Source: Cyanophora paradoxa CCMP329
Taxonomy: Eukaryota > Plantae > Glaucophyta
DNA length: 64,000 bases
NCBI GenBank assembly: GCA_004431415.1
Contig: QPMI01000392.1
Location: 21,168-85,167 of the forward strand
Reading direction: 5' to 3'
A program made the position numbers and the translations under genes. The notes below the pieces were generated by a model. The model was not told the DNA's origin. It made no database searches and saw only the letters and a program-made list of their open reading frames with translations. This document shows positions 1 through 64,000 of this stretch, piece by piece. Position 1 is the stretch's first letter. Every line of letters begins with the position of its first letter.

Positions 1-3000
1 AGCTCGGGGCCGGGGACTCGGATTCTGGCTCTGGTGAGCTCTCGATCTTGGACGATTGAGCGTTCGCGCGAATCTCGGAAACTACCTAGCTACGTATAGT
101 AATAGTCCCTTTCATCTTCATCGCCGCGCATCCAAAAACTGACTCGACAAAACGCAATATTAATCGCGCTTGGGTCCGCAGCGGTCTCGGATTTCAGCTC
201 AAATGATGATTCTGACGCCGAGCTTGAGGACGCCAATTCCCAGCAAAGCCGGAGCAGTGGTGCCGAAGTTGAAGATGTCGAATTCTCTGCCGCCGTCGAG
301 AACCGCATACGGTTTCTGCTGCGGAAGGGGGTCGACACGCTGCACGCGGGAGCGAGCAGCTTTGGGCTCGCGAAGATCGCCGTGGAGATCTCCGAGGACG
401 ACTGCTTCCTGGCAAACGAGCTCGTGTGCCGCGGTCTTCTCGACCCGGCGGTTGGAGCCGCCATGCAGATCGCTGCGACCCGGCTGGCCATGGGGTCCCG
501 CCTCGAGCTCTCGACGGACGTCAATCTAGCGGACTCGGACACGGGATGCCTAGGCATGCTCTGCTTTCGCTTCCCGCCCCTGTGCTCGCGTTTGAGAGCG
601 CACAGGTGAGCGGCCGCGGCCTACGTTGGATCCGGAGGTGCTGCTCGTCCAGCCCATGCAGATTTCGGAGACGGACGTGCCTTTCGGTGCAGGCTCCCGG
701 TACCGGTACGCATCAAAAACCGCACTTCAGCTTTCCATCCAGACACCTTGTCTCAAAGTGCATGCACGTGCATGTTGCGTGTGCAGGTATCCGTATGGCG
801 ATGGATGCCCTGCACAGAACATTGCTGCGCGAACGGCAGAGCTCGTAGAGGGATACGGCGTCTCAGTCAACATGCTAGGATGCTGCGAGGACATCGGCTG
901 CCCGTGCCGCAAGGCCGGAACCGCCTGGGACTTGGCGGACGTTGCGCTTGTTGGAATCGGTGCGATCACGTTCACTTCAGAAACGCTAAAACGTTAGAGG
1001 CGCACCTCTCAATGAAAAATCGTTATTGCACATCTCTCTCGGCAGCTCAAATGCGCCAGTGACCGTTCCCAGTATCGATCGTTTTACTGATGCGCGCACG
1101 CAGGTACGTGTGTCGTGAAGATGCAGTTTGGCGACGAGGAGCGGGACCGAGCCATGGTGCACCATCTGCGACACAACAAAACGGCTCGTGCCGAGGTGGC
1201 GGCGATTGCGCGCGATGCCCTCGCCCGCATTGGAGTTGACACCAACCGCTGCACCATCACGGTGACGCGAGCATTTTGTGGATGTGCCGGTGCTGAGTGC
1301 GTCTAGATCTCGGGACGCTGCGAGGCCGTGCCTTGCAATTGGCCTGGATCTATAGTTGGCTAGATCTAAAGCCCTTCTATATTCACGAAATACTCGTAAC
1401 TGCGTTTACGTACTACAGGGCGAAACTCGACTTTCTGGGGTCGGAACGCGACGATCTGGAGCGCCAGTACATCGAAATCACGGCTCGCCTGGAGCAGCTG
1501 CGAAAGCATCAGATGGAGCTGATCGAGGCTCGCGATTCGGCCGCGCGCTCATCGCAACCGCAGCCACAGCCGCGCCTCGATCGCCAGCTGCAGAGCTCCC
1601 TGTTGGCCACTGCAGCCGAGATCAGGCAGCTATTCGAGCGTCTGCAACAGCTCGAGGCCAAACTTCGAGACGCAGAGTCGAGGCTGCGGGAGGCTGAGAC
1701 TAGGCTCGAACTTGCGGCAGCGACTGTGACCGAGCCATCTCGCGCCCCAGAGCCCGTGCCCGCGCCGGACGCAGCTGCTACGACCGCTGCGGGCCCGAGC
1801 GCCAGCCGTGGCGATGCCGTCGGCTTTGGCGGCTCACCAAGCGCGAGCGCACGCACAGCCGTGGAGCACAGCTCGACCATGACCGTCTCCGTTGCAGGAG
1901 TTGAAGGTACGGCCGTTGTGCTCCCCGTAAAGAAGCGCCGGCTCCAAGCCGGCGTTCTTGTCGTGACGTCGACGGAACGGGACGAGGGGCCGAGCTCGAG
2001 ATCGCTCCGTGATCGCGTCGAACCGTACGTGTACACGTCCCGTGCACCTAGCGCGCGCCCGCCTGTGTGTATGCAAGCCCATCGCGTTATATACTGCTGA
2101 TTATGTCAAAACAAGCTCGTGCTCGGCAGGAATTTTCCAACGTAGAGCTAACGCATGCACGGCCGCAGTGCTGGTTCTGGATCCGGTGGCCAAGGGCCCG
2201 GGCCAGCTTCCGGATCCGGTGGCCAAGGGCCCGGGCCAGCTTCCGGATCCGGATCCCGGGGTGATGCGTCGGAGGCGAAGCACACCCACGAGGCACCGCC
2301 ATTCGAGGTTGAGCTTGGCGGACGCGAACGACCCATGCCAGCGGTCGCTAGTGGCGCCCACGGAGATTCCGGGACCCGAGGAGCGTCGGCATCGACGTCG
2401 ATGGCGGAGGCAGAAGTATCGGCGAGCGCAATCCATGAACATATGCACGCCCCGCAACAGGACATCCAGAGCGACCCGTCGCTTGTGATTGAAAAGAGTG
2501 CGCGCATTAATGATTGATTCGGGCGGTTCCAAGGGAATGGCAAATCTGATAGTCCGGCCAACATAATTTGCTGAACGCGTGCAATCTCTTTGGTTTTTCC
2601 GCGGCAGAGTGCGCCTGCTGCCAGGCAACATTCCAAGTCAGCATCTACGAGATGGACAGGCATCGCTTCCGCCGTCCCATTGAGCCGGCGGCGTACATGC
2701 TGCAAGACGGACCTGGGTCCGACTTTGACGAAGATTTCGACCTTTTCCTGTGCAATCAATGCCTCGAACTTGACCGCTTGATTTCTGCCAGGACCGGTTC
2801 GCGCCCAGACAAAAGAGATTTAGACTTACATAGCTTGATCATGTATACATACACACATTCATATATTCAAATAAGCACATGCACCATGCGTGCACGTGCG
2901 CGCCACGATAGAAATGAACGCATCCATCTTATATATGCTTGCTGATTTGCCACGCACCTTCAACGTCAGGTCGACATCGTTTGCAAGTATGCTACGGTAA

Positions 3001-4665
3001 CGCACAGACAACAGGACGCTCGGACCACTGCCACGTGGTGGACACGGAGGCCGAGAACGACGCATGCGCAGTGATCGACTTGCACCCCAAATCGTATGAC
3101 AGCAGGCCGCACACAGAGCCTGGGGCGTGCGACTGTGACAACAGCCTGTGTCAGACACGGCCCCGGTGCAAAAACGCCGAACCGAACAACGCGAGTCTCG
3201 AATGCTTCCAATTGTGCGGGAAGCATCTTATTCTCATTTTCCAGGTGCACAGCAGAGCCCCACACATGCATGTACCTCTTGCGATTAATGCCAAATGCTA
3301 ACACGGGAGCTCTAGATCTAGCTCTCGCTCTAGATTCCGAACTGCGCTACTGCATTCGATCTGCATCCTCTCATCTGCAGTTTTTCCCGCAGGCTCAGCA
3401 GCTGAAGCAGCTCCGAAACCTCAACGAAAAGATGGCGAGGGGCGAGGAGTACAGATTTAGACCCGAGTGTCCGTCGCACTGTTTCGAGCAAGGCCCTGAC
3501 GCAGACGCCTTGCTCGAGTTGGCCGTCGCACACGCTCTCACACTACGGCCGCCGTCCGACAGCGAGAGTTTCGCGAACGTCCGCTACGCGGATCAAGGTT
3601 TCACTCTGTTGACGAACAGGGCAATCACTGAGTGGGAAATGGAGGAAGTTCGACGGGCGGCGGAGGACGAGCTGGGCGGACTTCTCGCACGACAGGGCCT
3701 CCGAAGCAACCGGCCCTCCGCGGACATGCACACCGTCCACGAGTGGTCGCTGCCGACGGGGCTGCGGTCGATGGATCCAGAATCCCAGGCACGCGTGCCA
3801 CCATCTGATGTTTTCGGCATCGAAATGCACCCCGAGGGGATAAATGCTCTATTGAAAGATACCGATTGATTCTCGATACAATTTCAGCTTTCCTGTGTTC
3901 TGCGACCGCTCGGTCCAGTACTACTGCTGACCCCTCGCCCGCAGCAATGTTGCAATGAAGATGGGTGCTATAAATCGCTTCTCGAACATCCGATCACTGG
4001 ACGTTTTGAAGGCTTTCCAGGCATCGTGCAGTGGTGCGCTGCGTCTACAAACTTCCCGTTGTGCGCAAGCGCAGTGAACGCTCTATTCTAACTCTACGCT
4101 GCCCGTGCACTCCACGCACAGCCGCGCTGTGGTCGCCGGTGCCAATCTGGGACCGTTCAACGAGCTCGAGCCCGAAATCGATCCGAGCAACGCTGGGGAA
4201 GGATCGGACGGAGACCTGGAAGGCATCGGGTACGTATACAACCAGCGGCCTGCAGGAGCGGTTGTGATCTGCGGTTGCGGCTTCCACGTCAAATGCGCCA
4301 TCGATACCAGCGAAGGATTCGTTTGCAGCACCACGAACAAATACCATTTTGTGTGCCCGCGATGCCGTGGACGTGGTCGTGTGCCCAAGCCCGTCGACGC
4401 CTTTGATTGCAAGGGCGCGAGGCTCCATGACTTGCAGGTAGATAGATTTCAGCAGCGTACGTGCGTTCTGGCGTACTGTGAGGACCGCTGCGTCAAGGCC
4501 CAGCTGGAGGGCAGACTCAAGCGGCTGTTCGATTCGGCCCCAAATGGGCGGCTCTCCGCTCCTGCGCTCGAGGAGGTCAAGCGGATCTTGGAGGAGGCGA
4601 AAACGACGCGCGTTTTCATCTGGTGCGCGTGCTCGCGCCTTACATTGCATCCGTGTCCGAGATAG
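1..4665 (+). CDS. 5'-partial multi-exon Cys-rich protein: coiled coil, CxxC pairs, AWS-like Cys cluster, C-terminal PHD-like finger
   Basis: Phase-consistent introns join the short ORFs (e.g. 34-181, 1297-1418, 2025-2168, 2498-2607, 3245-3393, 4034-4121; two need GC donors). Motifs: CDCDNSLC..RCKN..ECFQLC; CCNEDGC..IVQC..CGCGFHVKC..FVCPRC. Stop at 4663-4665. Confidence 0.55.
2175..2252 (+). repeat. 33-bp coding tandem repeat (~2.4 copies, SGSGGQGPGPA)
   Basis: tt(c/t)ggatccggtggccaagggcccgggccagc-type unit at 2175 and 2208, partial at 2241. Confidence 0.9.
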
Positions 4666-4851
4666 AGAGCGGATCGCGTTTATGCTTCTCATACATACAC
4701 AAAAATAGATTAATTTTTTAAAACCACCACACGCGTGAACTTAAGCTTCGCACTCGCTATCGCAAGCGTGTGTGTCGATATCGCGGTCGAGTTTGAATTT
4801 AACGTGACAAAATGTGCGCTCAGCAACTCCAAGTCCGCAATCAAGTGCGAC

Positions 4852-7115
4852 ATGGCGCTCTGCTACGGATGTGCGCAGAACTACGCGGAGCCGCTGAGTC
4901 TTCGGACCCGTGAAAGCAAAATCCCGTCGAGGGATGGCGCCCTGTGCATCACCTGTCCCGATTTGTACAGTGTCCATGGCTCCAACCGCAGCGAGTTCAT
5001 GTACGAATCGGCACTTGTCAAGCAGGAGCTCGATGTTCGCCAGGCGCTCACGGCCGACGGCGGGCCACGTGCACGGCGGCCGTGCGCATCTAGGCCTAGG
5101 GCGGGAGCTGCACCCGGAAGCGCGGCCCGCCAGACAGCCCACGCTCGAGCTCGACGAGGCGCCAATCCCGGCGGGCGCCGGCGCCGCCAGCGGGAGGAAT
5201 TGGAGGAGACGGAGGACGCCAATCGCGACGACCGCATTAGATTGCGGGCAATGGCGCACCGAGAGGTACGCTTGCGCTAGCAATTCGTGCAATGCATCCC
5301 GCGCCGCACTTGAACTTGCGTATGCGCACGCAGAAGGCGCAGCAGGAGGCCACGGCCGATGCCGACGAAGCGCTAGCGGGCCCGAGCCCAATGGACGTGG
5401 ACAGCGATCGTGAATCGCGGCCCGCGACCCCTGGACTCTACACGCGCGCTGGAGACACTCTCGTGGCGCTCCTGCCGATTTCAAGCGGCCCGTCGAGCTC
5501 GCACGTCCATCGCAGCGGAGCCATCACCTCGAACTCTGGACCCGGGTCAGCGGCAGAGCCGATCGTGCTCTCGCCTTCGAGCTCTCACAACTTGGACGAG
5601 CCGGCACCTGCAGCTGCGCCGCGGCCCGCCACCCGAATTGGGCGTCCACGTGACCCGCCGGCCTCGAGCTCTGTGGAGACGGTTCCGGCCGCGGAGCTCG
5701 GGGCATCGAGCTCGAGCCGGCCCAGACCGTTGGCTTCCAGCGCTCGGCGCACGCGCACAGAGCGGCAGTTCGACATACATACTGCGGCGCCACCCGATGC
5801 GGATTCCTCGGAGCTGGCGCCCCTGCAGGACCTCATCTTATCCCGTGCATTCGAAGTGGCTCGAAGAATGCAGATGCAGCTGTACACGCCGCAGATCGGT
5901 GCAACGCAAGTTCGACGCCTGGCAAGGATGGCCATGGACATGAACGTGCACTCGTACGTGATCGACCCGCCGGTAGAAGACATTCGGACGCCCGCTTTCA
6001 GCGAGTGCGACGCTCCCGAGAGATCGGAGCAGGGTCCGGAGCATGCGCAGCGGACGAGCACGTTCCTGCCATACGAGCCGCCAACTCCCGGTCCGGTGCG
6101 TACTCGTGATCAGCGGGCCTGCCCGGCGCCCTAGGAGCTCAGAGCCGGGTCAACGCCGTTTGCGTTGAGCGAATTTCGCTTGCAGATGGAGGCCGATGCC
6201 ACGGATCCGGACCAGTCCATTGCGCGAGAGCACGTTTTGCGTGCAGAGTGGTGGGCAAGGGGAGACCCGGTGTGCGGAGAGCTGCAGGGCGCGCATGCAC
6301 TTCCGGAGGGCGCCCGCGAGCTACCCGCGCCGCCGCAACTGCCTACGGACCCTGATCCTCTCCCCCTGGTCCTGGTGCGCATCGCTGCGCGCGGCGCAGC
6401 CTGCGGCGCGTCGGCGGTGCTCGGCCACGGCCGCAAACGACCGCGGGCGCCTGACGGTTGGTCCCGCTGGGCATCTCGCAGAGCGGCGGTGCGGGCGCTG
6501 CGGCCGTGGGCGCCGCTGCACCCCCGGCCCCGACCCCGACCTCGACCGGAGCGGCCCCCCCTGCTGCAGCTGCGGGCGTGGCGTCGGCCGCGCCCGGCGG
6601 CGGATCCGCCGCCGAACCCGACCTCCCGTTCATAAGCGTCAAGGCGGCCTTGAGGGCGGTGAAAGCCGGCTGGGCCTTTTACGGCGGAAGGCGCGTCGTG
6701 TTCCCTGGCCAGCGGAACCCCCTTCGAGGGAGCGACCCGCGCTGGCGGTGGGGGGAGGGCGTGTGCTACATCATCGACCTCGCCTGCTTCGAACCCTCGA
6801 TCTCGGAGAATGAATTTACGTTTTCGGAGAAGTACAGGTTCGCAGGCACTCCGGGCGAGCCGCTTTGGACGCGGCATTTACGTCTATTAATATTTACGCT
6901 TCTGTTGCAGGAAAACGGCGATTCAGGGCCTCGACCTCTGGCTGCCGAGAGGGCATCGGGAGAGGGCGATGTGGGAGAAGCGCATCAGGCACTCTAGGGC
7001 CGTCTGGGAAGCTGGGGACTTTCAGGAGGTAGCCGGGCAGGAGGAGGCGACAATCGCAAAGACTTTTTCGCGCTCTCTCTGGGTGCCGCACGAGATTATC
7101 GACAACATGCCATGA
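4852..7115 (+). CDS. Multi-exon hypothetical protein with N-terminal CxxC..CxxC
   Basis: ATG 4852 (MALCYGC..CITC); introns ~5266-5333, ~6096-6134, 6375-6481, 6838-6910 keep the frame; Trp-rich C-terminal domain; TGA 7113-7115. Confidence 0.6.
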
Positions 7116-7687
7116 TGATGCATGCGCAGCTTTGATTTGATCACAAAGTAATGTTCGATAATTGATGCAGCTTTGGTTCGAGCAACTGTCGAATAACATG
7201 ATATCCTTGCACATCTTTTATGAAAGCTGGCTATCGGGAGGAAGGAAGGGAGAAAGAAAACGGGCAGTTTAATGTAAGCGGGACAATTAGTGTAATTATA
7301 ACAGAAAAGGCAAACGGAAACGAAAGAGCGCCGGGGCGTGGGTCGTCAAGTCGTTCGCCCGCGGGCGACTGGAGCGAGATGAGCTAAGGGGGCGGTTGCT
7401 GGACGGGCCGAGGAGGAGGAGGAGGAGGGAGAGAGGCGCGGGCGCGGGCGGGGCGGGGGGGGGGGGGGGGGGGGGGGGAGTTGAAGTTGGAGAAAGGGCC
7501 AGGGGTGGGGGGGGGGGAGGGAGGCGAGCGTAGAGGGTCGGGAGGGAGGGGGCAAATCTCGCCACCCGGCCTCCTTGCCCGGTACCCCCGCCCTCGTCTC
7601 GCTCCCTGCTGCGTACGAGCCGTAAGGCGAGGGGTGGCGGCGAGGGGGTAGGGGGCGGACCTTCGGCGGGGCTCACGGGGGGCGGAC

Positions 7688-10505
7688 TCAGTCGTCCGAG
7701 TCGCCGCCCATGAGGAGGGCGGAGAGATCGGCTTGCTGCTCGTCCTCGTCCGGAGGGGCGAGGGGCTCGCAGGCCTGCTCGGCGTCGAAGAGGCCGTCGA
7801 TCAGGGCCCACCCGTTGGCGTCGGCGACCACCTGCAGCTTCGCCTTGTAGTCCTGGAGCTGCTTCTTCTCAAGCGTGGCGATGGCGTGGAGGGCGTGGAG
7901 GAAGGAGACGCCGGGGGCGTTGCGGGCGTGGGCGAGGTGCGGGTAGCGCTCGACCAGGTGGCCCACCTCGAGCAGGGATCGAAAGGCCCGCCGCTGCTTC
8001 GACTCGCTGTCCAGCACGAGGCCCGCAAGCCAGAGGATCGTGGCGAGACGGGGGTACAGGTAGGCCTCGCGGAACTTTCCCCAACTTTGTTTGGGGACGC
8101 CTTTTTCCTGGGGGTGCGGTCAGAGATACGGAGCAAAGCGCAGCAGGGGGAGGGAGCTAAGGGAGGGGGAGGGAGGTAAGGGAGGGGGAGGGGAAGGGGG
8201 ACGGGGGGAGGGAAGGCGCGGGGGCGGGGGGGAGGTGCAGATGGGGAAGGGTGGGAAGGGGGGAAGAGCGGGGAGGGGGGGGAGGGAGGGGAGGGGGGAG
8301 GAGGGGGAGGAGGGGAGAGGCGGGGGAGGGGGAGGCAAGGTGCAGAGGGGGGGGGGGGGGGGGGGAGAAGGGGGGCGAGAAATGTGGAGGGCCGGGGGTT
8401 AGAGGGCGCGAGGGGGACCTAAAGGGTGGCGGGTGGTCCCTGGCCCCCCCTCGTGCAGAACCGCGCTCGCACCGGCTTAAGCTTCTGCAGCGTGCGGTAG
8501 CCGCAGAGGACGGCGCTTGCAGCGATGAGGAGGAGCCGCGCGGCGTCGCCCTGCGCCTTCTCCAGCTTGGCCCGCATCTCCTCCCGCAGGGGAAAGCTGT
8601 CGAGGACGAGGCGGCCGGCGCGGGTGACCGCAGAGGCCGCCGGGCCGGCGCTGCCGGATGCATGGGGCACCGGCGCGCCCCCGCCGCCCTCGAGCACCTC
8701 CAGGCAGGCGGCGACGCTCGGCACCGGCGGCTGCGCTGGGACGAGAGCGGCGTCGCTGCTGCCGCCACCGGACGCGGGCACCGGCGGCAGGTCAAGCTGG
8801 TCGGGCTCTGGCTCGGAGGAGCCGGGACCCCGCGCCGCCTCCTTGCCCCGCGGGGGCCGCCGGCGCGGGGGCGCGCTCGGGGCAGGCGCCCCCTCGAGCT
8901 GAGCCGCCGGCTGCCCCGGGGCCGGCTCCTTTCGGAGGGCCCTGGCCATCATCTTGAGGCTGCCGTGCGCGAAGAGCCGCTCCGCGCGCCTCGTCAGGCC
9001 CTTGGGCTTGCTGCCGACGGCGGCGGCCGCGGGGCTGGAGCTGGAGCTGGGGCCCGGGGCCGGCTGCTGCTTCGACGAGGCCGCCGCGGACGCTGCGCTG
9101 GCGCCGCCCGCGCCGTCGCGCCGCGGCCGGCGCGTGCGCGCCTTCTTCGCCGCAGGCTGAGACTGCAGCTTCTGCTTCTTCGCCGGGGGAGGCTGCTCCT
9201 TCTCCTTGGCCTGCTTGGACGCGGCCACCCGCGCGCTCCTGCGCGCTCCCGACTTGTCCCCGCCCTCCTCCCCGTCCTCCTCCTCGTCCTCCCCGCCCTC
9301 CTCTTCGCCCTCCTCGTCGTCGCCCGCCTGCATCCGAGAGCGAGTTGGTGCCAAAGAGAGAGGGGCAAAGAAGGCAGCGGGGGGGCGGGGGAGGGGGAGA
9401 AGGGGGCTGAGGGGGGTAGGGGGTACGAAGGCTGGGGGAAGGGGGGGGGGTACGGGGCGCGCGGGGCTCACCTTGCCACTCGGGTCGGCGGGTTCCTCGT
9501 CCTCGTCCTCGTCCTCCTCCTTGTCCTCCCCCTCCCCCGCCCTTTCCTCCTCTCCATCGCTTCCCTGTCGCGCCGCCGCATCAGCACCGTGCCGCGACCG
9601 CGGCGCCCGAGCGGGATCGGGCCCACCCGGTCAGCCCGCATGCGCCGCTCCCCAGGCCGGCTGCCGCCGCGGCCGCCGCCGCTGGAGGCCCCCGAGGCGG
9701 CCGGCGCAGCTGGCGGCGCCGCACGCCGTGCCTCGAGTTCGAGCTCCTTCAGGAGCTCGTCCTTTGACTTGGTCTCGGCCAGCTGGAAGGCATCGAAGCT
9801 GGTGGCGGCCGGGCGCCAGACCGCGTTGAAGAAGCAGAGAAAGGCGCCGAGCGCGCGGCAGGCCTGAAAGTCCTCCTTGCCGCGCCCGAAGGCGTGAAAG
9901 CTCTTGCACAGATCGCACTCGATGCTGAAATAGCCGTCTGCGCGCGCGCGCGCGCGTCAGCGCTGGGGGCCGGGGTGGGCGAAATCCGGGGAGCAGGGCG
10001 GCGCACCCTTGGGGTTGAAGCCTTTCGGGCCCTTCAAGCAGTCGCCGCACGCGAATCCGCCTTCGGCGAGTTTCTCGGCGGCCAGCTTGCGAACTTTCTG
10101 CCAGAGCTCGCCCGCTTTGCGCGTCTTGCCGCCCCGCGGCTGGAGGAGCAGCTCCGATATGGTGCACGTGAGCTCCTGCCGCGACGGCTCGTCGGCGTCG
10201 GGCTCCTGCTCCGCGCTGAGATCGCGGTCGACCAACGGCACGACCTGAACGTATTCCTGGGCCGCGTCGGCGGCGCATTCGGCGACTATGCAGTCGGCGA
10301 TGGCTTCAACGATGCAGCGGGGCACGAAGGCGGAGAGTGTCCAGGGCGCCACTTCCCCGCAGATCATGCAGCCGACCTTGACGTCGCCGGCAACGAGGGC
10401 GGCGCGCCAGGCCGCGGCGAGGTCCTTCACGTACGGCCCGAGGCTTTCCGTGCTCCCGAGGAGTTCTGCTGCCTCGACCTGATCCGAAATCGATTTGCCG
10501 CGCAT
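7688..10505 (-). CDS. Multi-exon protein: Cys-pair N-domain, acidic/low-complexity linker, conserved helical C-domain (paralog of 53944-56268)
   Basis: CMIC..CGDC..CDLC; intron 8108-8472 in phase, others near 9330-9470 and 9940-10007; C-terminal SWGKFREAYLYPRLATILWLAG aligns with LWGAYRAEHLCAKYDAILQAAG at 54.4 kb. An upstream exon (donor at 10632) is possible. Confidence 0.65.
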
Positions 10506-10647
10506 CTGCGCTATTCCTTGACCGGTCATGACTCGTCGGTCTGGTGCCACAGCGGTGCGGCTGGGGCCCCTGAGCACGCGCACCGTGTGCCGCCGCAGCT
10601 CCCCGCGCGCGAGCTCGCACGCGGGCCCGCACCCTGCTATTTTTTTC

Positions 10648-10804
10648 GGGGGCCAGTTTGCAACGTTTCGATGGTGCACCGGCGCACCATCGAATTTCAA
10701 CAGCACGCCGCGCCGCGCGAGTGCCCTCCGGCGCCTTCTGTAGCCCCCGGAGAGCTCGGAAATCGCTTCGGCGCCCGCCCAGCTCGTGCTGGCCCCGAGC
10801 GCAG
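10648..10804 (+). repeat. Dispersed repeat copy 1, containing 11-6-11 inverted repeat (10667-10694)
   Basis: TTCGATGGTGC-ACCGGC-GCACCATCGAA inside a ~60-bp near-invariant core also present at 23.7 kb and 59.55 kb. Confidence 0.9.
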
Positions 10805-11379
10805 CTGACGATCCCATGCCCATCGATATCGCCAGCCCGGAGCCCTCGGAGCGCAGCGCCCGCCCCGAGCCGCGCGAGCGGCTCGAAAGAGGCCGTCAGC
10901 TTGCAGGTGGGAGGCGCGCTCGCCGGCGGAGTCGCCGCCGCTCGTCCGCGGGCCCGGCTCGCGCGCGGTCGTGCACGAGCTCCCATCGCCGACGCTTCAA
11001 AGGGCAGTTTCCGCGGACGTGTGCTTGGCCGCGTGCGGATCGGACGGTCCGGGGCAGACGCGCGCGTGCGCCGCTCGGTACCGGTGCTCGCTCGATCGGC
11101 AGACGCGCACGCCGATCGCTTCGCGGGCAGCGGGGCCTGGCCTCGGCGGCCTGCATCGTGCGACGAAGAGGCGGGCGCGGCACGGTGCGATCCAGGCCCT
11201 CCCCGCCCGGCGGCGCGCGCCGCGACGGTGGGCCCGCCGCCGCCTCGCCCTTTGGCTCGCTCTCCGCGCGCCTCGCGCACGATACAGGCGTCGAGGCCGG
11301 TTCCTTCTACGGCCGCTCCCCCCCTCGCCTTCCCCCCCCTCTCCTCCCCGTTCCTCTCTAACGCCCGCCCTCGCCCGCC

Positions 11380-52430: not shown

Positions 52431-53514
52431 ATGCCCCGCATCAAGGTAGGAAAATGATCATGAAAGCCCGCTGAATTCATATCTGCGATTCTTAGTTCTT
52501 TCGAGTTCGTTGAACATTGTAATTATACTTTGCAGCAAACTGCCAAGCGTGGCACCGGAAACAAGGCCCCGCGAAAGGCATTCAAGAGCTCCGGCGCCAG
52601 CGGCCTCAAGACCAAAGCCGCGCGGAAAAAGGCTGTGGGCGAGGGCGGAGTGAGAAAGCCGTTCCGGTCGGCCTGCTCTCTTCCCTACGTTTTATTTTCA
52701 AGAGAAAGTCCCGGCACGTGAGAATCGCGCGCTCGCGCAGCCATCGCCCTGGGACGGTGGCAAAGCGCGAAATTGTGAAGTACGTTCAATGTTTTTATTT
52801 CACTCTTGTTCAAATCTATTTAAATCTAGATCTGAGACAAATAAATTCTGAATGAAACCCCGCTCCTGTTCAGGTACCAGAAGACCTACAATGCCCTCAT
52901 TCCGCTGGCCCCGTTCGGCCGCCTGGTACGTGTGGGGGCCCTTCAAAACTTGAAATTATCCTCTGCCGCCCGAGCCCTGTGCCCTGCTGTGCGGCGCGTG
53001 CACGTGCGCAGGTGCGCGAGCTCACGGCCGCGATGATCAAGGAAGACGTGGAGGCCGGTCTTCGTGAACAATCTGTCAACTTTCGGTTCACAAAGGTGCG
53101 CGCCCGTGCCGCAGTGCCGGGCGCGGGGGGGGTGCGAATAGCTGGCTGATTAATATTTCATGTCTTGCAGGACACTATCCGGGCCATTCGCGAGGCCGCC
53201 GAGGCGCACATCATTCGCTGGTTCGAGGGTGGTGTCCTCGCGGCCAAGCACCGCAAGCGAGTCACGGTCGGGTGCGCACGCGTAAGGTCTTGCCCTATTT
53301 TGATTACAAATGCCGCAGTGCCTCTTCCGTCCTTGATTATAACTATAAGCATGGCTTAAGCTCCCTCTGCCAGGCTGCTTCTTTAATTATAATGTCACGC
53401 TCGGATTGATGCTAATCGCGACTGTCCTAATCCTTGAATTTGGACAGCCCTGCAGACACGGATCTTGCGCGACGCTTGAAGGGAGACACGGCGGCCGACA
53501 CCGAGAGCGCCTGA
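52431..53514 (+). CDS. H3: Divergent histone H3 variant, 162 aa, 7 exons
   Basis: Exons 52431-52445, 52536-52666, 52741-52779, 52874-52925, 53012-53095, 53171-53271, 53448-53514 give MPRIKQTAKRGTGNKAPRK..KAARKK..GGVRKPFRHRPGTVAKREIVKYQK..PFGRLVRE..EAAEAH..HRKRVTVGPADTDLARRLKG. Confidence 0.92.
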
Positions 53515-53943
53515 AGCTTAAAATCGCGATAGAGACTCTGAGACAAATAGCTAGAATGCCGCCACCACGAGTTCTGGTCATGATCACGGTCACTTATTTA
53601 CCAAGTCAGTGATCATGAGCCGCCCTAGGCCTCGTCACGGCATGGCAGAATCGGGTGCTAAAGCTTGCAATCGATATCGATACTATGATAACACGTGAGC
53701 ACTGAGCGCAGAAAGTCACACGGATCATAAAAGCACACTACGTACTGCACAGATCAGAAATCTACAAGTCTAGAGCGCGGGGAACATCGCATCAAATAGT
53801 CAACTAGGGCCTAGCTATAGGCTTCACTCTAGATCTAGATCTTACTAAAGAGCCAGAAAGAGAGAGGGCCAGAGTATTTAGATGATTGAAACGAAAAGGT
53901 TGAACTCTAAACAGCGTATAACGTGTGCTATTTTCGTTGCCGG

Positions 53944-56268
53944 TCAGTCGCCTTTGGCGCTGGCCTCGCCGGCGCCTTCGGCGGCCCCTTCCTCGCCCGA
54001 CGCCTCGCTCTGCTCGTCCCCGTCCCCGTCCCGTCGCTCTCGCCGGCCTCCCGAAGCTCCAGCACCGAGCCGTCAAAGACAAAGCCCTTGGCGCGCTGCA
54101 CCTCTTCCGCGAGCCGCTCCCGGATCTGGTCCGCCCCTCTTTCGTGCAGCCCTTCAGGAGCGGGAGGCAGCTGACAAAGTCGACGACCGATATGCCGCTC
54201 CCGCAGACGCGCGCAAGGCCAGGGAACCTCGTGAGCGTCTCTCCCAGCGCGCGGAGGTCGTTGTAGATCTCGGACTGCGCGAGCCTCGAGTGAGCGACGT
54301 CGAAAGCTCGCCGGGCCGGGTACGCGTGCTCGCGGCTGCAGCTAGGGGCCCGCCCCCGCACCCTCCTCCCGCAAGGGAATTCGAAGCGACCTCACCTTTT
54401 GGGCGCTGACCTCGAGGCGAAAGCCGGCCGCCTGGAGGATGGCGTCGTACTTGGCGCAGAGGTGCTCGGCGCGGTAGGCGCCCCAGAGGCGGCGGTTGCG
54501 GCCGTAGCGCTCCGTGTAGGCCTGGTGGACGGCGAGGACGGAGCAGGCGATGAGCATGATGCAGCGGATCCGCTCCCGCCCGCCTCTTCGATGCGGTTCA
54601 GGAGGGCCGCGCGGGCCTCCGGGCTGGCGTCGATCTGGCGCCCGATGAGCCCCGGGTCGATCCCCGCCTCGAGCCCAAAGTCGTAGGCCTCCAGCGACTC
54701 TGGGTCGAGCCCGCCCTCGCCCTCGCCCCCGCCCCCGGCGGGGCCCTCGGCGAGCTCGTCGGCGTCGTCCGCGCCGCCCTCGGCCCGCTCCGCCTCGGCG
54801 AGGGCCTTGCGCCAGCGCTCCGCGAGCTCCTTGCCCCGCGGGTCCGGCGAGCCGGCGCGCGAGCCGTCCTCCTCGCTGCCCGAGCCGCCGCCGCCGCCCC
54901 GCCGCCCTCGGGCCCGGCCTCGATGGCGAGGGGGCCGCCGCCGCCTTGCCCTTGCCCTTGCCCTTGCCGCCGCCGCCGCTGCTGCCGCCGCCGCCGCCGC
55001 CGCTCCCGGCCGAGCTGCCCCCTCCGACTCGGAGCGCGCGTCCTCGTCCTTGGGGCGCGTGTACGCGTTGTAGAGGACGCGGATGAGCTTGTCCGACTCC
55101 CACTCCTTGCGGCGGTCGCGCCCGGCGCCCCACTTGCTCCGCGCCGCCCGCCGCGCCGGCTTCGAGGGGCCGGCGCCCGAGCCGGACCCGGGGCCGGCGC
55201 CCTGCGCCGAGGCCGACGCCGACGCCGCCTCGGGGTCGGGGGAGCTCGCCGGCTTGGGCGGGCGCAGCGTCTTGCGCCGCTCCAGCGCCCGCTCCTCGGC
55301 GCCGTCCTCCCCCTCTTCCTGCTCGGCCGCCGACTCGCCCCGCGCCGGGCCCTTGGTCGACGTCGCGGCGCGCTTGGCGCGCGATCGCGAGGGCCGGCGG
55401 CCGGCCCCTCCTCCTCCTTCTCCTCCCCTCCTCCTCGGCGGCCGGGCCCGGGCCCGAGGCGGCGCCCTTTTCCTTGCGCTTCTTGCCGCCCTGGGCCTTG
55501 GCGCCCGCGGCCGGCTCCCCCGGGCCAGGGGGGCGGCCGCCGGCGCCGGCGGCTGGGCGGCGGGCGCGGATCCGTCGGACGGGGCGGCGGCTCCGGGGCC
55601 AGAGCCAGAGCCCGAGCTCGGGCCCGCCCCGGCGGGGGCCGCGGGGGCCGGGGGCGGGCCGCCGCCGCCGGCGGCGGCGGGGCGCGGGCCTCGGCGGCGG
55701 CCGCCTGGAAGCGCTCGAGGGCGTACGTGAGCGCCGTGCGGAGGCAGAGGTCGCCGGAGATCCACGAGGCGGCAAAGGCGGCGTCGTCGATGTAGGCGAG
55801 AAAGGAAAAGAGGGCGTCGATGCGGGAGCTGCAGACGAGGCCCGAGGCGGCCGGGTGGGGTCGCCGCAGCTGGGGCAGGTGAAGAGGGGCGGCGAGGCGC
55901 CGCCCTCGGCGCTGACGGAGAGGAGGGTGAGGGCGCAGCTGAGGCAGACGAACGAGCCGGTCGAGTTGAACTTGAGGTCGTCGAGGGCGGGGCGCGGGTG
56001 CGCGTCGAGGGCCTCGTTGACGGACGAGGCGCCGGTCTTGGCGAGGAGGCGGGCGGCGGCGCAGGAGAGGAGGATCGGGGGGAGGATGCGCTCCGACTTG
56101 CAGCGGGCGCAGGCGGGGCGGCAGGAGAGGAGCGGGTCCCGCCCAGGCTGATGAACGCGGGAGGCTGACCTTGGCCGGCCGCGAGTCGAGGGGCGGGCAG
56201 CCGGACGCGCCGCCCGCCGCGCCCCGCGGGCTCGTCACCTGGGCCCCCGACGCCGGCTGCGACGCCAT
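53944..56268 (-). CDS. Cys-pair / low-complexity / helical-domain protein, paralog of 7688-10505 (several apparent frameshifts)
   Basis: CARC..CLSC..CPSC; RCIMLIACSVL..LWGAYR..; LGETLTRFPGLARV; intron from 54395; TATA ~56352. Confidence 0.6.
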
Positions 56269-56559
56269 CGCCGGAGGCAGGGGGGAAGGAGGAGGACCCC
56301 GGCAGAAGGGGCCTGCGGGTCTCGTCGGGAGGATCGGGGGGCCGGCGACTCCTATATATGCCCCATCGGGGCCCGCCGGGATGGGCAAAAGCGGGCAGAC
56401 GGGGCGGCGGGGGTGAGGGGAGGGGTACGGTGGGAAGGACGCGTGCCGGGGCGGGGCGGCGGCCGGCGGTGGGCGATGGCCCCGCGGGCCCCAACGACGG
56501 CGCGCGGGCCCCGCGGTGGGCGCCGCGAAACGGCGCCCGCCGAGAGTCGTCCGGTTTTG

Positions 56560-58400
56560 ACCCGCCCGGTCGATTCCGGCTACGGCGCCTGTACCCCTGG
56601 GGCGGCCCGCGAGCCCGCGGTGAGACGAGGCGAGCGGCGGGGGGCGGGGCGAGCGGGGGTACGGACGGACCGGGCCCGCCGCTTATGGCCCGCCTGGTCG
56701 ATTCCGGCTACGGCGCCTGTACCCCTGGGCGGGCCGGCAAGCACGTCGGTGAGACGAGGCGAGCGGCCAGAGGGTGCAGGGGAGCGGGGTACGGACGAAC
56801 CGGGCCCCGCCGCTTATCGCCCGCCTGGTCGATTCCGGCTACGGCGCCTGTACCCTGGGCCGGCCCGCGAGCCCTCGGTGAGACGAGGCGAGCGGCCAGA
56901 GGGTGCAGGGTACGGACGAACCGGGCCCGCCGCTTATGGCCCGCCTGGTCGATTCCGGCTACGGCGCCTGTACCCCTGGCGGGCCCGTGAGCTCTTCGGT
57001 GAGACGCGGCGAGCGGCCAGAGGGTGCGGGGAAGCAGGGGTACGGACGGACCGAGCCCCGTCGCTTATGGCCCGCCTGGTCGATTCCGGCTACGGCGCCT
57101 GTACCCCTGGGCGGACCGCGAGCTCTCGATGAGACGAGGCGAGCGGCCAGAGGGTGCGGGGGAAGCGGGGTACGGAGGAACCGAGCCCCGCCGCTTATCG
57201 CCCGCCTGGTCGATTCCGGCTACGGCGCCTGTACCCCTGGGCGGGCCCGCGAGCTCTCGATGAGACGAGGCGACCGGCCAGAGGGTGCGGGGAAGCGGGG
57301 GTACGGACGAACCGAGCCCCGCCGCTTATCGCCCGCCTGGTCGATTCCGGCTACGGCACCTGTACCCCTGGGCGGGCCCGCGAGCCCTCGGTGAGACGAG
57401 GCGAGCGGCCAGAGAGTGCGGGGGAAGCGGGGGTACGGACGAACCGAGCCCCGCCGCTTATGGCCCGCCTGGTCGATTCCGGCTACGGCGCCTGTACCCC
57501 TGGGCGGGCCCGCGAGCACGTCGGTGAGACGAGGCGGCGGTGCGCGAACTCTCTGTGAGATGGGGGCGAGCGGTCGGAGGGTGCGGAAGCGCGCGAAGGG
57601 GTGGGTCGAGAGGAAAGGCAAACGACAGCGTTAGCAGGGGTACACGCACCGTAGCCGGAATCGACCAGGCCGCCCCTACTGCGGGCCAGCGCCGCGGGCC
57701 GGACGGGGCGCCGAGTGAGCGAGGGCGGGGCGCGGAGAGGGCGCGTTGTGGGGTACACACGCCGTAGCCGGAATCGACCAGGCCGCCCCTACTGCGAGCC
57801 TGCTGCTGCGGGTCGAACGGGGCGCAGGGTGAGCGAGGGCGGGGCCACGCGAGGGGTCGAGAAAGGGGGGCACACACGCCGTAGCCGGAATCGACCAGGC
57901 CGCCCCTACTGAGAGCCAGCTGCTGCGGGCCGGACGGGCCGCCGAGTGAGCGAGGGCGGGGGGCGGAGAAGGCGCGTTGGGGGGTACACACGCCGTTGCC
58001 GGAATCGACCAGGCCGCCCCTACTGAGAGCCAGCTGCGCGGGCCGTACGGGCCGCCGAGTGTGCGGGGGCGGGGGGCGCTCGAAGGGGGCGAGAGGCCAA
58101 GGGGGGTACACACGCCGTTGCCGGAATCGACCAGGCCGCCCCTACTGCGAGCCTGCTGCTTCGGGCCGTACGGGTCGTCGAGTGAGCGAGGGAGGGGCGC
58201 TCGAAGGGGGCGAGAGACCTAGGGGGGTACACACAGCGTAGCCGGAATCGACCAGGCCGCCCCTACTGAGAGCCTGCTGCTGCGGGCCGTACGGGCCGCC
58301 GAGTGAGCGAGGGCGGGGGCGCTCGAGGGGAGGGGGGGGGGGCGAGAGACCTAGGGGGGTACACACAGCGTAGCCGGAATCGACCAGGCCGCCCCTACTG
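56560..58400. repeat. Bipartite array 4: 8 B units (+), then 7 A units (-)
   Basis: B cores 56568-57500; reverse A cores 57637-58385; degenerate core ~58490. Confidence 0.96.
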
Positions 58401-59537
58401 CGGGCCAGCGCTGCGATCGCTCTGGGTGAGCGATGGCGGGCGCGGACAAGGCGAGGAGCGCGGGCCGGTGGGGGAGGGAAAAAGAGCGGGGTGGACCGGC
58501 CGTACCCGGAATCGGCCCGATCGCTCTTCCGCGCCCCCGCGTGGGGTACGAGGCTCGTACGCGCCCGCCCAGCAGCGCTAGCGCCCCTCGAGCGCCGAGC
58601 CTGCCGAGGCGATGAGCACCGCACCGAGCTCGAGAGCTCGACGGGAAGAAAGGGAACCGGTCGAGGGGGTGCGCGGGCGCACTCCCCACGAGGCCCCGGG
58701 CGCTCTTGGCTCGCCCAGCGGGCCGGCTGCCGAGGGCTTGGCGTGGGCGGGGAAGAGGATCCAGAGGGGGCGCTCGAAGCGGGCGAGGCGCCGGGCCGCG
58801 CTCACCCTCGCGATGGACGCCCCGCCGCCGCTTGCGCCGCCGCCGCCGCAGGGCATCGGCCGGCTCCCCGTGCCGACCGACGTCCCGGCGCCCGGCCTCG
58901 CCAGGCCGCTGCCGCGCGTCCCGCCACCCGAGCAGGCGGCCCCGAAGCGCACCAAGCGATCCGCTCTGGGCGACGGGGCGCCGCGGCCCGGCGCCGAGGC
59001 CTGGGCCGGTTGAGCGCCGGCCGGCTCCGGCGGGGCGGGCCCGGCCGGGGCGCGCGGGCGCGCGTAGGTATGAGCCGCTTTGGATTCGAACTGTACGCAG
59101 GAAGAGCTCGCGGGCGCGCAGAAACTTAATCCGGCGTCGGCGCCCTGCGGGGCGAGGGACAGAGGCACGTCAGCCGCAGCGGACTCCGGGATCGAAAGTT
59201 GCATGCGGGCCGCGGCCGCCGAGCAGGCTAGGACGAAAGGGAGGCGCACGAGCCGCGCGGGTAGCTGGAACCGCCCGAGGCGTGGCTCTCTCGGGAGAGC
59301 AGAAGGGAGGCTCGCGGCTCGGGCGCGACAGAGCGCCGCACGAGCAGCTCGTGGTCCGCTGCTCTCTGTGCGTGGGATCGCTGTGGTTTTCTCTGTGTCT
59401 GTTTTTTTGCGACCAAGTGTACCCCGCAGATTCGCCGCAGCAGTGTTGCAAGCTGCAGCCAGCTGCCGCCGCAGCCCCCCGCGCGCGTTCTCGCAACGCT
59501 GGCCAGCAGAGCCTTCATGCGCATGCGCAGCTCTTTC

Positions 59538-59695: not shown

Positions 59696-60184
59696 TCGAC
59701 GAGGCCACGGCCACTGCTAGCTATTGATCTCCAGCGGCCCTCTGACGCTTCTACGACCCGACAACCCCACGGATGCGTGTCCCGTCGCACAGGCTGGGCG
59801 TCACGGCGACCCTCGGCGGCCGCGGCGCTCGTGCGGCTACGCAGATGCAGCCGGCGCCCAAGGCGCACTTGTGGAGGTTCTCCGAGATTTAAACGCGCGC
59901 GCCGCAGCGCGGCCGGCCCCGGCGCGCCGCCGGCGCGCATCCGGCCATCGATCGGGCACGCCGCGTGCGGTGCGCAGCGTGCGGACCCGCGCGCTTCTCC
60001 GCCACACCCTCGCGAAGCGCTACGCGGGGTGGAGTGCGGGCGCGCCGGTTCCAGCGAGCAAGACGATCACCGAGTCGGCCGGCACCGCGCTCGGTCCGCC
60101 CCTCGCGGCTGCAGCGAGCCCCGCCTCCTTTTCCTCGGCCCGCTGCCACGCTCCGCGCGCCGCGGCGGCCCCTCGTGCGCCCCC

Positions 60185-61300
60185 GCCTTCGCTCACTCGG
60201 CAGCCCGTACGGCCCGCGGCAGCTGGCTCGCAGTAGGGGCGGCCTGGTCGATTCCGGCTACGGTGTGTGTACCCCCCTAGGCCTCTCGCCCCCTTCGAGC
60301 GCCCCCGCCCCCCGCTCACTCGGCGGCCCGTGCGGCCCGCAGCAGCTGGCTCGCAGTAGGGGCGGCCTGGTCGATTCCGGCTACGGTGTGTGTACCCCTT
60401 AGGCCTCTCGCCCCCCTTCGAGCGCCCCCGCCCTCGCCCACTCGGCGGCCCGTACGGACCTGCAGCGCTGGCCCGCAGTAGGGGCGGCCTGGTCGATTCC
60501 GGCTACGGTGTGTGTACCCCCCAACGCGCCCTCTCCGCGCCCCGCCCTCGCTCACTCGGCGGCCCGTACAGATCGCAGCGCTGGCCCGCAGTAGGGCGGT
60601 CTGGTCGATTCCGGCTACGGCGTGTGTACCCCCTGCTGACGCTGTCATTTGCCTTTCCTCTCCACCCACCCCTTCGCGCGCTTCCGCACCCTCCGGCCGC
60701 GTGCCACCGTCTCACCGAGAGCTCCCGGTCCGCCCAGGGGTACAGGCGCCGTAGCCGGAATCGACCAGGCGGGCCATAAGCGGCGGGGCTCGGTTCGTCC
60801 GTACCCCCGCTCGTCCCGCCCCCCCGCCGCTCGCCTCGTCTTACGGACGGGGCGAGCGGGCCGTCCAGGGGTACAGGCGCCGTAGCCGGAATCGACCAGG
60901 CGGGCCATAAGCGGCGGGGCTCGGTCCGTCCGTACCCCCTCTTCCCCCGCCCCCCGCCGCTCGTCCCCGTCTCATCGAGAGCTCGTGGGCCCGCCCAGGG
61001 GTACAGGCGCCGTAGCCGGAATCGACCAGGCGGGCCATAAGCGGCGGGCTCGGTCCGTCCGTACCCCCGCTCTCCCCGCGCCCCCGCCGCCCGCCTCGTC
61101 TCACCGAGAGCTCTCGGACCCGTCCAGGGGTACGGGCACCGTAGCCGGAATCGACCAGGCGGGCGATAAGCGGCGGGGCTCGGTTCGTCCGTACCCCCGC
61201 TCTCCCTGCCCCCCTGCCGATCGCCTCGTCTCACCGAGAGCTCTCGGGCCCGTCCAGGGGCACCGGCGCCGTTGCCGGAATCGACCAGGCGGGCTATCTG
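60185..61300. repeat. Bipartite array 5: 4 A units (+), then 5 B units (-)
   Basis: A cores 60247, 60369, 60491, 60603; reverse B cores 60737-61286. Confidence 0.95.
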
Positions 61301-61545
61301 GCAGCAGGGCCCGGCCCGCACCATCCCCTCGAGCTCCCCCCCCCCCCCCCCCCTTCCGCTATGGTCACACGCCCCGGCCCGGTTGTGATTCTGATCGCGA
61401 TCAACTCAAAACCCGCGCCCTGAACGCCAACTGTACATCTACCTAGCTGCCTAGCTGCCTGTCTACCTGTCCAAGCACGTGCATGGGCCTTGGCATGGGC
61501 GGGCCCCCGATAGAGGGCGAGCCCGTCCGACCCCGTCGGGCGGCC

Positions 61546-63275: not shown

Positions 63276-64000
63276 CCCGGCGGAGCTCCCATCAACCAAC
63301 GGCGTATATACGTACCCGGCGCGAGCGAAAAAACTCAATCAAAGCCACCAACCGTCATCAACTTGCCATGCAACTCGAGCTCGCAATTACGTATACGCAC
63401 CGGTACGCAGGTGCGCCCGTCCGGTCCGGCCGCATAAGAGCCCGCATTGCCAGCGCGGCTCAGACAGCTATCAGGCTAGTTTAGCCTAGCTAGCTTTCTA
63501 CAGTCTTTTCACGTTTCCGCGACTCCGGCCGCGGGCCCTAGCTATAGGCCTCGGCAGCTGCAGCTTCTTCGGCACGGTCGGATCGTCGGACCGTACCGTG
63601 CCGCCCATGGCCAGCCGTGGCCGCGGGAGCGGGATCCGCCCACGGTTTATCTCTCTGGAGACCGGAATGGAGAGCATTTCGACCGAGTCTAGCGTGCGCG
63701 GCCGCCCCCCAGCCGCGTCCAGACACTCGCCCGCTGCCGACCGCGGCCTGCGTGGCCCGCGTGGGGCCCGGGGTCACGACCGCAACCCATGAGTCGAGAA
63801 TTCTACTAGCTATAGGCTAAAGCCGTCCGATCGTACGCGTGCCGGCCGCGGGCGCCCGGCGGGGCGTGCTGGCAACGTTGACGGGCCGGGGCCACCGTGG
63901 CACGCGCTGGCGTCTTCATGCTAATTATATAAGCAGCAGCGCTATATGCATACACCATACGCATAATACAGCTAGCACGACCGCGGGCTCGATCCTCTTG

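Follow-up and report, generated by a model that had tools for sequence, protein, structure and literature searches.

Large DNA viruses that depend on the host nucleus are the closest described counterparts of the locus analyzed here. According to published accounts, such viruses carry AEP-UL9 proteins, TFIIB, histones, RING proteins, and introns. Among the nucleus-dependent nucleocytoviruses, the ariadnaviruses (SmDNAV) and the mriyaviruses (R8/pF1055L-type primase-helicase) have an AEP domain fused to a UL9-like SF2 helicase; ariadnaviruses also have TFIIB and no histones, and mriyaviruses measure 35-45 kb. The intron-rich mirusviruses (Okeanovirales and Styxvirales) have spliceosomal introns, a histone, a C3HC4 RING protein, no polymerase, and predicted nuclear replication, and no mention of a primase or recombinase was found in the parts of their source paper that were searched. 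Giant endogenous viral elements of algae, Punuivirus among them, are integrated, with intron-bearing and motif-bearing gene sets, virion proteins, RNA polymerase, and terminal inverted repeats. Starships, the giant tyrosine-recombinase (YR) transposons of fungi, and Cryptons span tens of kilobases and carry diverse cargo.

The window, a 64,000-nucleotide stretch of a contig from the glaucophyte alga Cyanophora paradoxa, was compared with each of these systems. Like the nucleus-dependent nucleocytoviruses, it encodes an AEP-UL9 fusion, with no DNA or RNA polymerase found within it, and it has TFIIB in common with ariadnaviruses; in contrast to them, it contains a histone H3 gene, an apparent unit of about 49 kb or more, and an initiator with 9-17% sequence identity to viral UL9-like proteins, and no capsid, A32, VLTF2/3, PCNA, or HUH gene was named in it. 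The histone, C3HC4 RING protein, and spliceosomal introns are mirusvirus accessory traits that are not diagnostic; no HK97 capsid, terminase, portal, TBP, Snf2, or heliorhodopsin was named in the window, which has an initiator and a likely recombinase. The intron-bearing and motif-bearing gene sets resemble those of Punuivirus and its kin, whereas TATA-box promoters, inward-facing arrays, and 11-6-11 sites set the element apart from them. From Starships and Cryptons, which it resembles in size, cargo, and a likely tyrosine recombinase, it differs in the absence of DUF3435, the placement of the recombinase behind an Ulp1-type protease, an initiator and arrays of its own, and an algal host. The first-pass annotation had proposed a new class of element; this was not established from the window, since each of the AEP-UL9, TFIIB, histone, RING, and intron features is found among large DNA viruses already known to depend on the nucleus, and endogenous giant viruses were previously reported in this alga. 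The reading that we prefer, at roughly even confidence, treats the window as one portion of a large selfish replicon whose likely ancestor was a nucleus-dependent large DNA virus, and holds that the approximately 49 kb between two palindromes of the same direction likely also exist as a circle or a head-to-tail tandem.

Gene content of the window

The replication initiator gene (28569..34052, minus strand) encodes an AEP primase, a zinc finger, and a UL9-like SF2 helicase, as indicated by profile, fold, and motif matches, in agreement with the AEP-UL9 assignment made earlier. Its C-terminal SF2 helicase is closest to herpes UL9: with a profile of 10 initiator family members, the herpes origin-binding protein was the only PDB sequence at E<0.01 (E 5.8e-6), the best solved match of the initiator model was HSV-1 UL9 (Z 15.8, rmsd 5.5, 399 aligned; next row, Z 11.6), and the top Foldseek viral rows were UL9-like proteins of nucleocytoviruses and herpesviruses. 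The N terminus is predicted to be an AEP domain with intact catalytic motifs; its Pfam support was weak (LigD_Prim-Pol, E 0.004-0.012; weak matches overall, E 0.004-0.03), and the DxD, SGxKGFH, and RxD primase motifs were retained in four of five subfamilies. A search of 1.84 billion representative proteins gave 11 matches, all of them gene models of C. paradoxa, in which the initiators form five divergent subfamilies (22-37% identity) on nine contig tags. Besides tig00020509, tig00021535, and tig00021536, the initiator loci bear the tags tig00000540, tig00000526, tig00021072, tig00020539, tig00000104, and tig00021046. Compensating frame changes near 29190-29590 between the initiator gene of the window and its copy P0002 are likely assembly errors. 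IMG/VR contained no relative of the initiator helicase in a search sensitive to close relatives only.

The TFIIB core (15638..16630, minus strand), consisting of cyclin repeats with an acidic N terminus, was confirmed by NCBIfam (E 3.3e-7), and a short ORF with its own TATA box (16932..17153, minus strand) showed a TFIIB-like zinc ribbon pattern when read by eye and had no HMM match. The H3 gene identified previously also stood (52431..53516, plus strand): the spliced reading gave seven exons, six GT-AG introns, and a 162-aa protein with no stop. Aligned to H3.1, this variant has the changes R8K, K9R, S10G, S28K, and K36R, retains K27, and contains an 8-aa tail insertion; its loop 1 is long in comparison with H3. 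An assignment as CenH3 was rejected, as the tail aligns with H3.1 residues 5-38. A weak search found no database gene model for the variant. According to a review, single viral H3s mostly retain their tail sites.

Among the ubiquitin-type genes, a C3HC4 RING protein (34426..35100, plus strand; Pfam E 5.7e-7) is encoded divergently from the initiator, and two paralogous F-box genes (39753-40787 and 41356-42327) occupy 39753..42327 on the minus strand, one with a Pfam E of 6.8e-5 and the second, its paralogue, with its own E of 0.25-0.5. Thus, the RING and F-box parts of the proposed SKP1/F-box/RING set were supported, but the possible SKP1/BTB-like candidate (17254..18198, minus strand) had no Pfam or PDB match. 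Similarly, the nuclease described as SLX1-like (45763..46113, minus strand) proved to be a GIY-YIG protein (E 1.5e-8) of the UPF0213/SLX1 branch, for which bacterial UPF0213 was a better match (E 1.5e-8) than SLX1 was (E 0.0055); a tblastn search of plasmids and phages gave one weak GIY-YIG match.

The remaining genes included the following: a 573-aa protein (13269..14990, plus strand) with no Pfam, NCBIfam, or PDB match; a 296-aa intronless ORF (18546..19436, plus strand) preceded by two promoter motif copies; a gene present in two copies (36013..39287, plus strand; 96% DNA identity; 203 and 209 aa), both of which carry a TATA box plus two copies of the motif; and a spliced gene with an N-terminal zinc finger pattern (53619..56268, minus strand; Pfam zinc ribbon, E 0.002). 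Introns were spliced out in contigs from two studies that were classed as likely RNA, although no run was recorded as RNA. One such contig skips 54275-54395, a GT-AG intron of the zinc finger gene, and contigs of two studies contain CT..AC joints (8106/8472 and 10505/10584) in a spliced gene (7691..11340, minus strand) whose likely transcript reaches or crosses the palindromic site P1. The H3 bin was almost uncovered and bases 1-7,500 were mostly little covered in these contigs, neither of which is evidence of silence. The left flank (1..10677) consists of short exons, several of them Cys-rich, with a GC content of 57-67% up to 8 kb and no Pfam family named. Methylation-driven decay was rejected as the source of the low-GC stretches, given that CpG loss was absent.

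The reported lack of housekeeping genes was borne out, with no such family among 25 + 100 + 30 frames scanned with Pfam in a window of 456 stop-free frames of at least 70 aa, and Rfam gave no matches in the window. The scanned frames are also where a more ordinary explanation can be weighed, namely, that the window is the inner part of an endogenous large DNA virus (nucleocytovirus, mirusvirus, or mriyavirus-like) with its capsid and packaging genes outside the window and a second copy that is another insertion or a rearranged duplicate. We regard this explanation as an appreciable possibility. Published work describes AEP-UL9 in mimiviruses, ASFV, some mriyaviruses, ariadnaviruses, and malacoherpesviruses, histones and RING proteins in intron-rich, polymerase-less mirusviruses, and a latent algal giant virus with intron-bearing and motif-bearing gene sets like those of the window; endogenous giant viruses and mriyavirus-like regions have also been reported in glaucophytes. 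In contrast, Pfam, NCBIfam, and PHROGs identified none of the virion, polymerase, or late-transcription-factor families in the scanned frames (at least six ORFs had no assignment), and no double-jelly-roll capsid, A32 ATPase, VLTF3, polB, or HUH endonuclease was named among these frames, nor, with general rather than mirusvirus profiles, an HK97 capsid, terminase, portal, or triplex. Moreover, an ordinary endogenous virus does not need the rotated, repeated copy described below.

Repeat arrays, promoter motif, and palindromic sites

The homologous arrays noted in the first-pass annotation were recovered as 62 copies of an 18-base core, compared with none in 30 shuffles, and grouped into five modules, in all of which the cores face inward. 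The array search placed an A array (118 nt) facing a B array (158 nt) in M1 (11364..12700, plus strand) and 12 A units (124 nt) facing 16 B units (130-150 nt) in M2 (24690..28340, plus strand). Core counts gave two B and two A cores in M3 (35149..35820, minus strand), eight B and seven A cores in M4 (56555..58456, minus strand), and four A and five B cores in M5 (60165..61320, plus strand), which lies outside the P1-P3 interval. A degenerate sixth module with single diverged cores in both orientations was located at 44510..44830 (plus strand). The array core had no match in IMG/VR; its one match in the JGI metagenomes (L001), a single copy with unrelated flanks, was dismissed as chance.

The motif GGGAWTCCC was enriched, with 17 copies in the window against a mean of 1.4 and a maximum of 6 in 30 shuffles, but the notion of a private promoter motif held for one block only (13132..42485); the recombinase gene, H3, and the TFIIB core have no copy of it in their promoters. 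All 17 copies lie at most 300 nt upstream of an intronless ORF start, a placement that is partly circular in that the list of ORF starts was compiled with the motif already known.

Three palindromes with 11-base arms and a 6-base spacer were found in the window, compared with none in 100 shuffles, by a palindrome search combined with core alignment. P1 (10648..10709, plus strand; palindrome at 10667-10694) has a 62-base conserved core; P2 (23706..23767, minus strand; palindrome at 23721-23748) is inverted relative to P1 and P3; and P3 (59539..59600, plus strand) has the orientation of P1, lies 48,891 bases from it, and contains an arm with two mismatches. In a three-way comparison, the cores are 90-100% identical, compared with 55-80% in adjoining sequence; they have no open frame in common, and each lies 584-966 bases from an A array. 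On these grounds, P1, P2, and P3 are candidate recombinase-type sites. Such sites were absent from the features listed in the first-pass annotation. A coding motif was rejected as their explanation (one copy has a stop 10 codons upstream, the flanks shift frame, and third positions are conserved), as were terminal inverted repeats for P1 and P2, because homology runs past the core on both sides. Since M5 lies beyond P3 and P1 lies inside a likely transcribed stretch, neither P1 nor P3 is simply an element end bordering host DNA.

A multi-exon gene (47100..51275, minus strand) was resolved by profile and PDB searches into an N terminus of no known family, an Ulp1/CE-clan protease (about 49500-50200), a likely tyrosine recombinase (about 47660-49060), and a C2H2 finger; the presence of an Ulp1-type protease in the recombinase gene is a new observation of this analysis. 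The tyrosine recombinase proposed earlier was favored by the PDB matches of the recombinase exon, all 13 of which were Cre/Tre, and by an alignment to Cre in which the catalytic box I Arg was matched, but the best E was 0.25 and Pfam, NCBIfam, and PHROGs named no recombinase family. The K, R, H, and Y residues were read by eye, and the His of H-x-x-R is replaced by Arg. Searches of P0013 and of its exons, at E cutoffs of 1 and 10, gave no match to DUF3435, the Starship captain domain; a tblastn search of plasmids and phages with the recombinase gave no match, nor did IMG/VR contain a relative of the exon in a search sensitive to close relatives only. A single-sequence fold model of a truncated recombinase copy was uninformative (pLDDT 39).

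A second copy with an apparently different gene order

A second copy, approximately 98% identical, was present in short-read DNA contigs and in likely-RNA contigs and is real sequence. More than one copy of a multi-gene unit is thus present in gene models and short-read contigs, in keeping with a mobile element. The previous proposal of a selfish element akin to large DNA viruses gained support from an initiator with no match outside one species yet five subfamilies within it and from six genes, spanning 38 kb of the window, with 95-99% identical copies on other contig tags. The copies are numbered g22210 (Fbox2), g22211 (Fbox1), g22214 (RING), g22215 (initiator), g22222 (573-aa protein, near-identical), and g22231 (recombinase) on the first tag and g22236 (Fbox2), g22239 (RING), and g22240/41 (initiator) on the next. 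This numbering differs from the window order (573-aa protein, initiator, RING, Fbox1, Fbox2, and recombinase), so the second copy is read as rotated, and rotated, repeated numbering is as expected of a circle joined at two palindromes. Based on gene numbering, a circle or tandem of the approximately 49-kb unit is likely; much the same list would arise from a second chromosomal copy with an inversion together with a redundant contig, and an exact look-up of 10 further ORFs, which bears on rotation versus inversion, found none of them.

Bases 1-10,677 had no variant copy in contigs of two DNA runs (no other letters over 1-2208, 2517-7400, and 8640-10677), which puts the left-hand boundary of the shared unit somewhere from P1 to 13,269. 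In run X3, flank contigs had depths of 127-217 and variant contigs 117-381, hinting at similar abundance, with contig depth not taken as copy number. The contig of the shared P core had a depth of 325 compared with 128-159 for adjoining contigs, below what at least five copies would suggest, contig depth again not being copy number.

An assembly artefact or a strain difference is a very improbable explanation of the second copy. Gene models on one of the two other tags are frameshifted, and a DNA run has just the variant letter at many listed places. However, the same run matches bases 1-10,677 exactly, both letters are present at 44693, 44720, 51325, and 51327, and the initiator copies P0001 and P0002 are 30 substitutions plus in-frame indels apart. 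Both other tags carry identical variants, and C. paradoxa is described as likely haploid in PMC6704402.

Alternatively, the window could be a host region that has accumulated captured viral genes, satellites, and an independent, small Ulp1-recombinase transposon and has undergone a recent segmental duplication, with no single replicating or moving unit. Host-type introns in several genes, restriction of the motif to one block, local tandem duplications, and the failure to find ends all fit such a history. It is nevertheless improbable, considering that six genes over 38 kb travel together, 62 array cores follow a single inward-facing layout, the P cores are conserved above their own flanks, no host housekeeping family was seen, and the frames are intact; of 14 differences listed within the compared F-box frames, 8 are synonymous and 6 match the other gene models.

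Proposed life cycle and implications

The genes, palindromic sites, arrays, second copy, and spliced contigs for some genes were observed directly; from them we infer YR mobilization and self-replication of the element. Under the preferred reading of a virus-derived selfish replicon, the unit would be excised or resolved at the palindromes; the contigs compared with the window showed neither an element end nor a target duplication, an empty site, or a circle junction. The repeated 35-base core of the inward-facing arrays would be the binding site of the UL9-like protein, which would open the gap that separates the arrays and start synthesis with primers, leaving the rest to a host DNA polymerase. 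Opposed initiator sites are found at herpes oriS, where UL9 acts, and baculovirus hr origins are several dispersed repeats, which the modules resemble in how they would work; unlike herpes oriS-type origins, the gaps between the arrays are not AT-rich. The tyrosine recombinase may recognize the 11-base arms, with strand exchange taking place in the asymmetric 6-base spacer; dif and loxP likewise have two arms around a 6-base spacer. Recombination of P1 with P3 would excise or reinsert the unit, as bracovirus circles are excised between direct repeats, and recombination at P2 would invert 13 kb. Host RNA polymerase II, aided by the TFIIB of the element, would transcribe its genes, GGGAWTCCC-plus-TATA promoters may drive the intronless block, the RING, F-box, and Ulp1-type proteins may retune host ubiquitin/SUMO control, and the H3 variant may keep element chromatin free of K9 methylation.

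A broader formulation, which we put forward tentatively and consider rather unlikely, is a class of giant integrative replicons of eukaryotes that have no capsid: nuclear elements of viral descent that would encode the tyrosine recombinase for their own excision and reinsertion via 11-6-11 sites, use a primase-UL9 initiator to replicate as circles from inward-facing arrays, have their own promoter class, employ an H3 without K9 as a heterochromatin shield, and comprise at least five long-diverged families in one glaucophyte genome.

Were the unit maintained stably as a circle with some transcription, it would amount to a nuclear plasmid, or to the genome of a latent large virus, in a model alga that is kept in culture, and a candidate origin, initiator, recombinase, and sites found together would make it a tractable case of polymerase-less large DNA replicons persisting in nuclei and a possible vector for algae. 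An element-borne H3 without K9 and K36 would represent a direct escape from host silencing. Should virion genes be found, the locus would still represent a virus lineage of glaucophytes that branches deeply, comprises five subfamilies, and has not been described before.

The replication initiator and its family

The anatomy of the window is real and richer than the first-pass annotation had described. An open reading frame (ORF) on the minus strand at 28569-34052 (1,827 codons) encodes a primase-UL9 fusion. It had been proposed as an AEP-UL9 replication initiator, and the UL9 part was borne out by two comparisons: a ten-member family profile matched, at E < 0.01, only the herpes origin-binding protein among PDB sequences, and the predicted structure (pLDDT 58) had HSV-1 UL9 as its top match (Z 15.8; next match, 11.6). 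UL9-like proteins from three viral groups (marseilleviruses, mimiviruses, and herpesviruses) matched the model too, with 9 to 17% identity. AEP-UL9 is reported from nucleus-dependent nucleocytoviruses in the accessible parts of bioRxiv 2026.08.29.747986 and 2024.02.29.582850.

Among 1.84 billion representatives, a 1,199-residue query from the initiator found 11 matches, namely, the window's own model and ten same-species models on seven other contig tags; together with P0002, the near-identical second copy, they form five subfamilies with 22 to 37% identity. No orthologue outside this host was found among these representatives, which argues against ordinary host genes. We consider it improbable that the window, eukaryotic and GC-rich with GT-AG introns, is an accumulated host region. 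Two distinct subfamilies lie 15 gene numbers apart on tig00000540, where model g1940, identical to the window gene in part and ~55-70% alike in part, is perhaps a recombinant. Frame changes at 29190-29590 that compensate one another relative to the second copy are likely assembly errors, since distant subfamilies conserve the other frame.

Palindromic sites, arrays, and the likely recombinase

Each of three 62-base cores encloses a palindrome of the 11-6-11 form whose spacer is asymmetric. The palindromes lie at 10667 (+), 23721 (-), and, bearing two mismatches, 59558 (+); 100 shuffles yielded zero such sites. The cores are conserved far above their flanks, and comparison of the three copies ruled out a shared reading frame. 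Their geometry matches that of dif-type recombinase sites. Each core lies <1 kb from an array. The homologous arrays claimed earlier stood up: they comprise two unit types with a common core of ~35 bases, and in all five modules these cores face inward across a 156- to 273-base gap, a layout that would suit initiator-binding origins. The supposed private promoter motif, GGGAWTCCC, is enriched (17 copies versus 1.4 expected) but limited to the intronless block; genes with introns carry TATA boxes yet lack this motif. At 42458-42485, upstream of the F-box gene Fbox2, two copies of the motif make another 11-6-11 palindrome.

The tyrosine recombinase call was weakly supported. All 13 PDB sequences matched by the main exon were Cre or Tre, with the first catalytic Arg aligned, but the best E value was weak (0.25), and neither profiles nor a poor-quality fold model added support; the remaining catalytic residues were read by eye. 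The putative recombinase belongs to a multi-exon gene whose product includes a Ulp1-type protease as well (Pfam E 0.005; PDB E 6e-4). This Ulp1/CE-clan domain (49500-50200) is fused ahead of the recombinase and was absent from the first-pass list.

Gene content and the histone H3 variant

Scans covered 155 frames for Pfam (picked by coding likeness out of 456 long frames), 17 for PHROGs, and 15 for NCBIfam. The families named in these frames included no virion, polymerase, or housekeeping proteins, in keeping with the claimed lack of housekeeping genes, and at least six ORFs had no assignment. TFIIB, RING, F-box, and H3 were all recovered; the nuclease called SLX1-like was confirmed as GIY-YIG, and SKP1 was not confirmed. 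TFIIB looks split at 15638-17153 into a core and a zinc-ribbon-like ORF, each preceded by its own TATA box. An unassigned 203/209-amino-acid gene is tandemly duplicated with its promoter (96%) at 36013-39287. Between the copies (~37450-37810) lies an acidic, internally repetitive ORF that resembles one at ~19800-20090. Spacers between converging genes (19400-21300, 23000-23320, 36900-37450, 39050-39750, and 53500-53900) are AT-richer and full of short palindromes. Outside the third palindromic site lies an unassigned minus-strand multi-exon gene (61500-63330; TATA box at ~63305). Positions 1-7400 are unique and lower in GC, with short Cys-rich exons; their contig depth in one sequencing run, X3, was ~212, against ~85 for GC-rich contigs that were unrelated and matched by chance. 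The difference may come from GC bias or from a larger replicon present in multiple copies.

The H3 gene (52431-53516; seven exons, six introns) encodes 162 residues. Relative to H3.1, its tail carries R8K, K9R, S10G, S28K, K36R, and an eight-residue insertion, with K27 retained, and the variant may represent an escape from K9 silencing. Loop 1 is long. A weak search found no database gene model for this H3. In Cyanophora paradoxa, 5mC lies on repeats and silent genes. Viral histones are treated in the available text of PMC9145170.

The second copy and the nature of the element

Evidence beyond the window came from gene-model names and contigs from public runs. EukProt models match window ORFs identically or nearly so, with related models under Cyanophora paradoxa, and 28,500-38,400 is present, whole or in part, in 20 sequencing runs, all with a single organism code. 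Six window genes have close copies on other contig tags. Ordered by gene-model number, tig00021535 carries Fbox2, Fbox1, two genes, RING, the initiator, six genes, the 573-amino-acid gene, eight genes, and the recombinase; tig00021536 carries Fbox2, RING, and the initiator once more. The reversed window has the same order for the first five copy genes, with the recombinase on the opposite side. A circle joined between the outermost palindromic sites would account for this order, and so could an inversion combined with a redundant contig. Of 10 additional ORFs sought by exact match to tell the two apart, none turned up. That the second copy is an artefact seems very unlikely. Both tags have variants in common that are absent from the window, and the Fbox2 variant letters are present in likely-RNA contigs from two studies. 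Compared with the window, contigs from a DNA run showed 252 differences in 39,300-56,400. Among the 40 listed in detail, 14 fell inside the compared F-box frames (6 matching other models and 8 synonymous), and one further was upstream of the other F-box model's start. Over 1-10,677, two DNA runs matched with no alternative letters.

Published accounts, as far as their accessible parts go, report endogenous giant viruses (PMC12344493) and polinton-like sequences (PMC12220804 and PMC8502044) in Cyanophora paradoxa, which is likely haploid (PMC6704402), and mriyavirus-like regions in a glaucophyte (bioRxiv 2025.04.19.649669); the main text of bioRxiv 2024.01.18.576163 does not mention the species. 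Other published accounts describe mirusviruses that are intron-rich and polymerase-less (PMC12768974), a punuivirus with two gene sets (bioRxiv 2026.10.09.758095), and Starships (PMC11162782). A literature search over titles, abstract openings, and text passages found no description of this element or of AEP-UL9 combined with a recombinase, sites, and arrays; subscription papers or supplements may contain one. The locus may be among the endogenous giant viruses of PMC12344493, and an ordinary endogenous large DNA virus is a credible, if less favored, explanation. Our preferred reading, to which we assign an even chance, is a virus-derived nuclear replicon excised or resolved at the palindromes. 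The window works like the genome of a nucleus-dependent large DNA virus with site-specific excision, a likeness in working that assigns no virus group or transposon superfamily.
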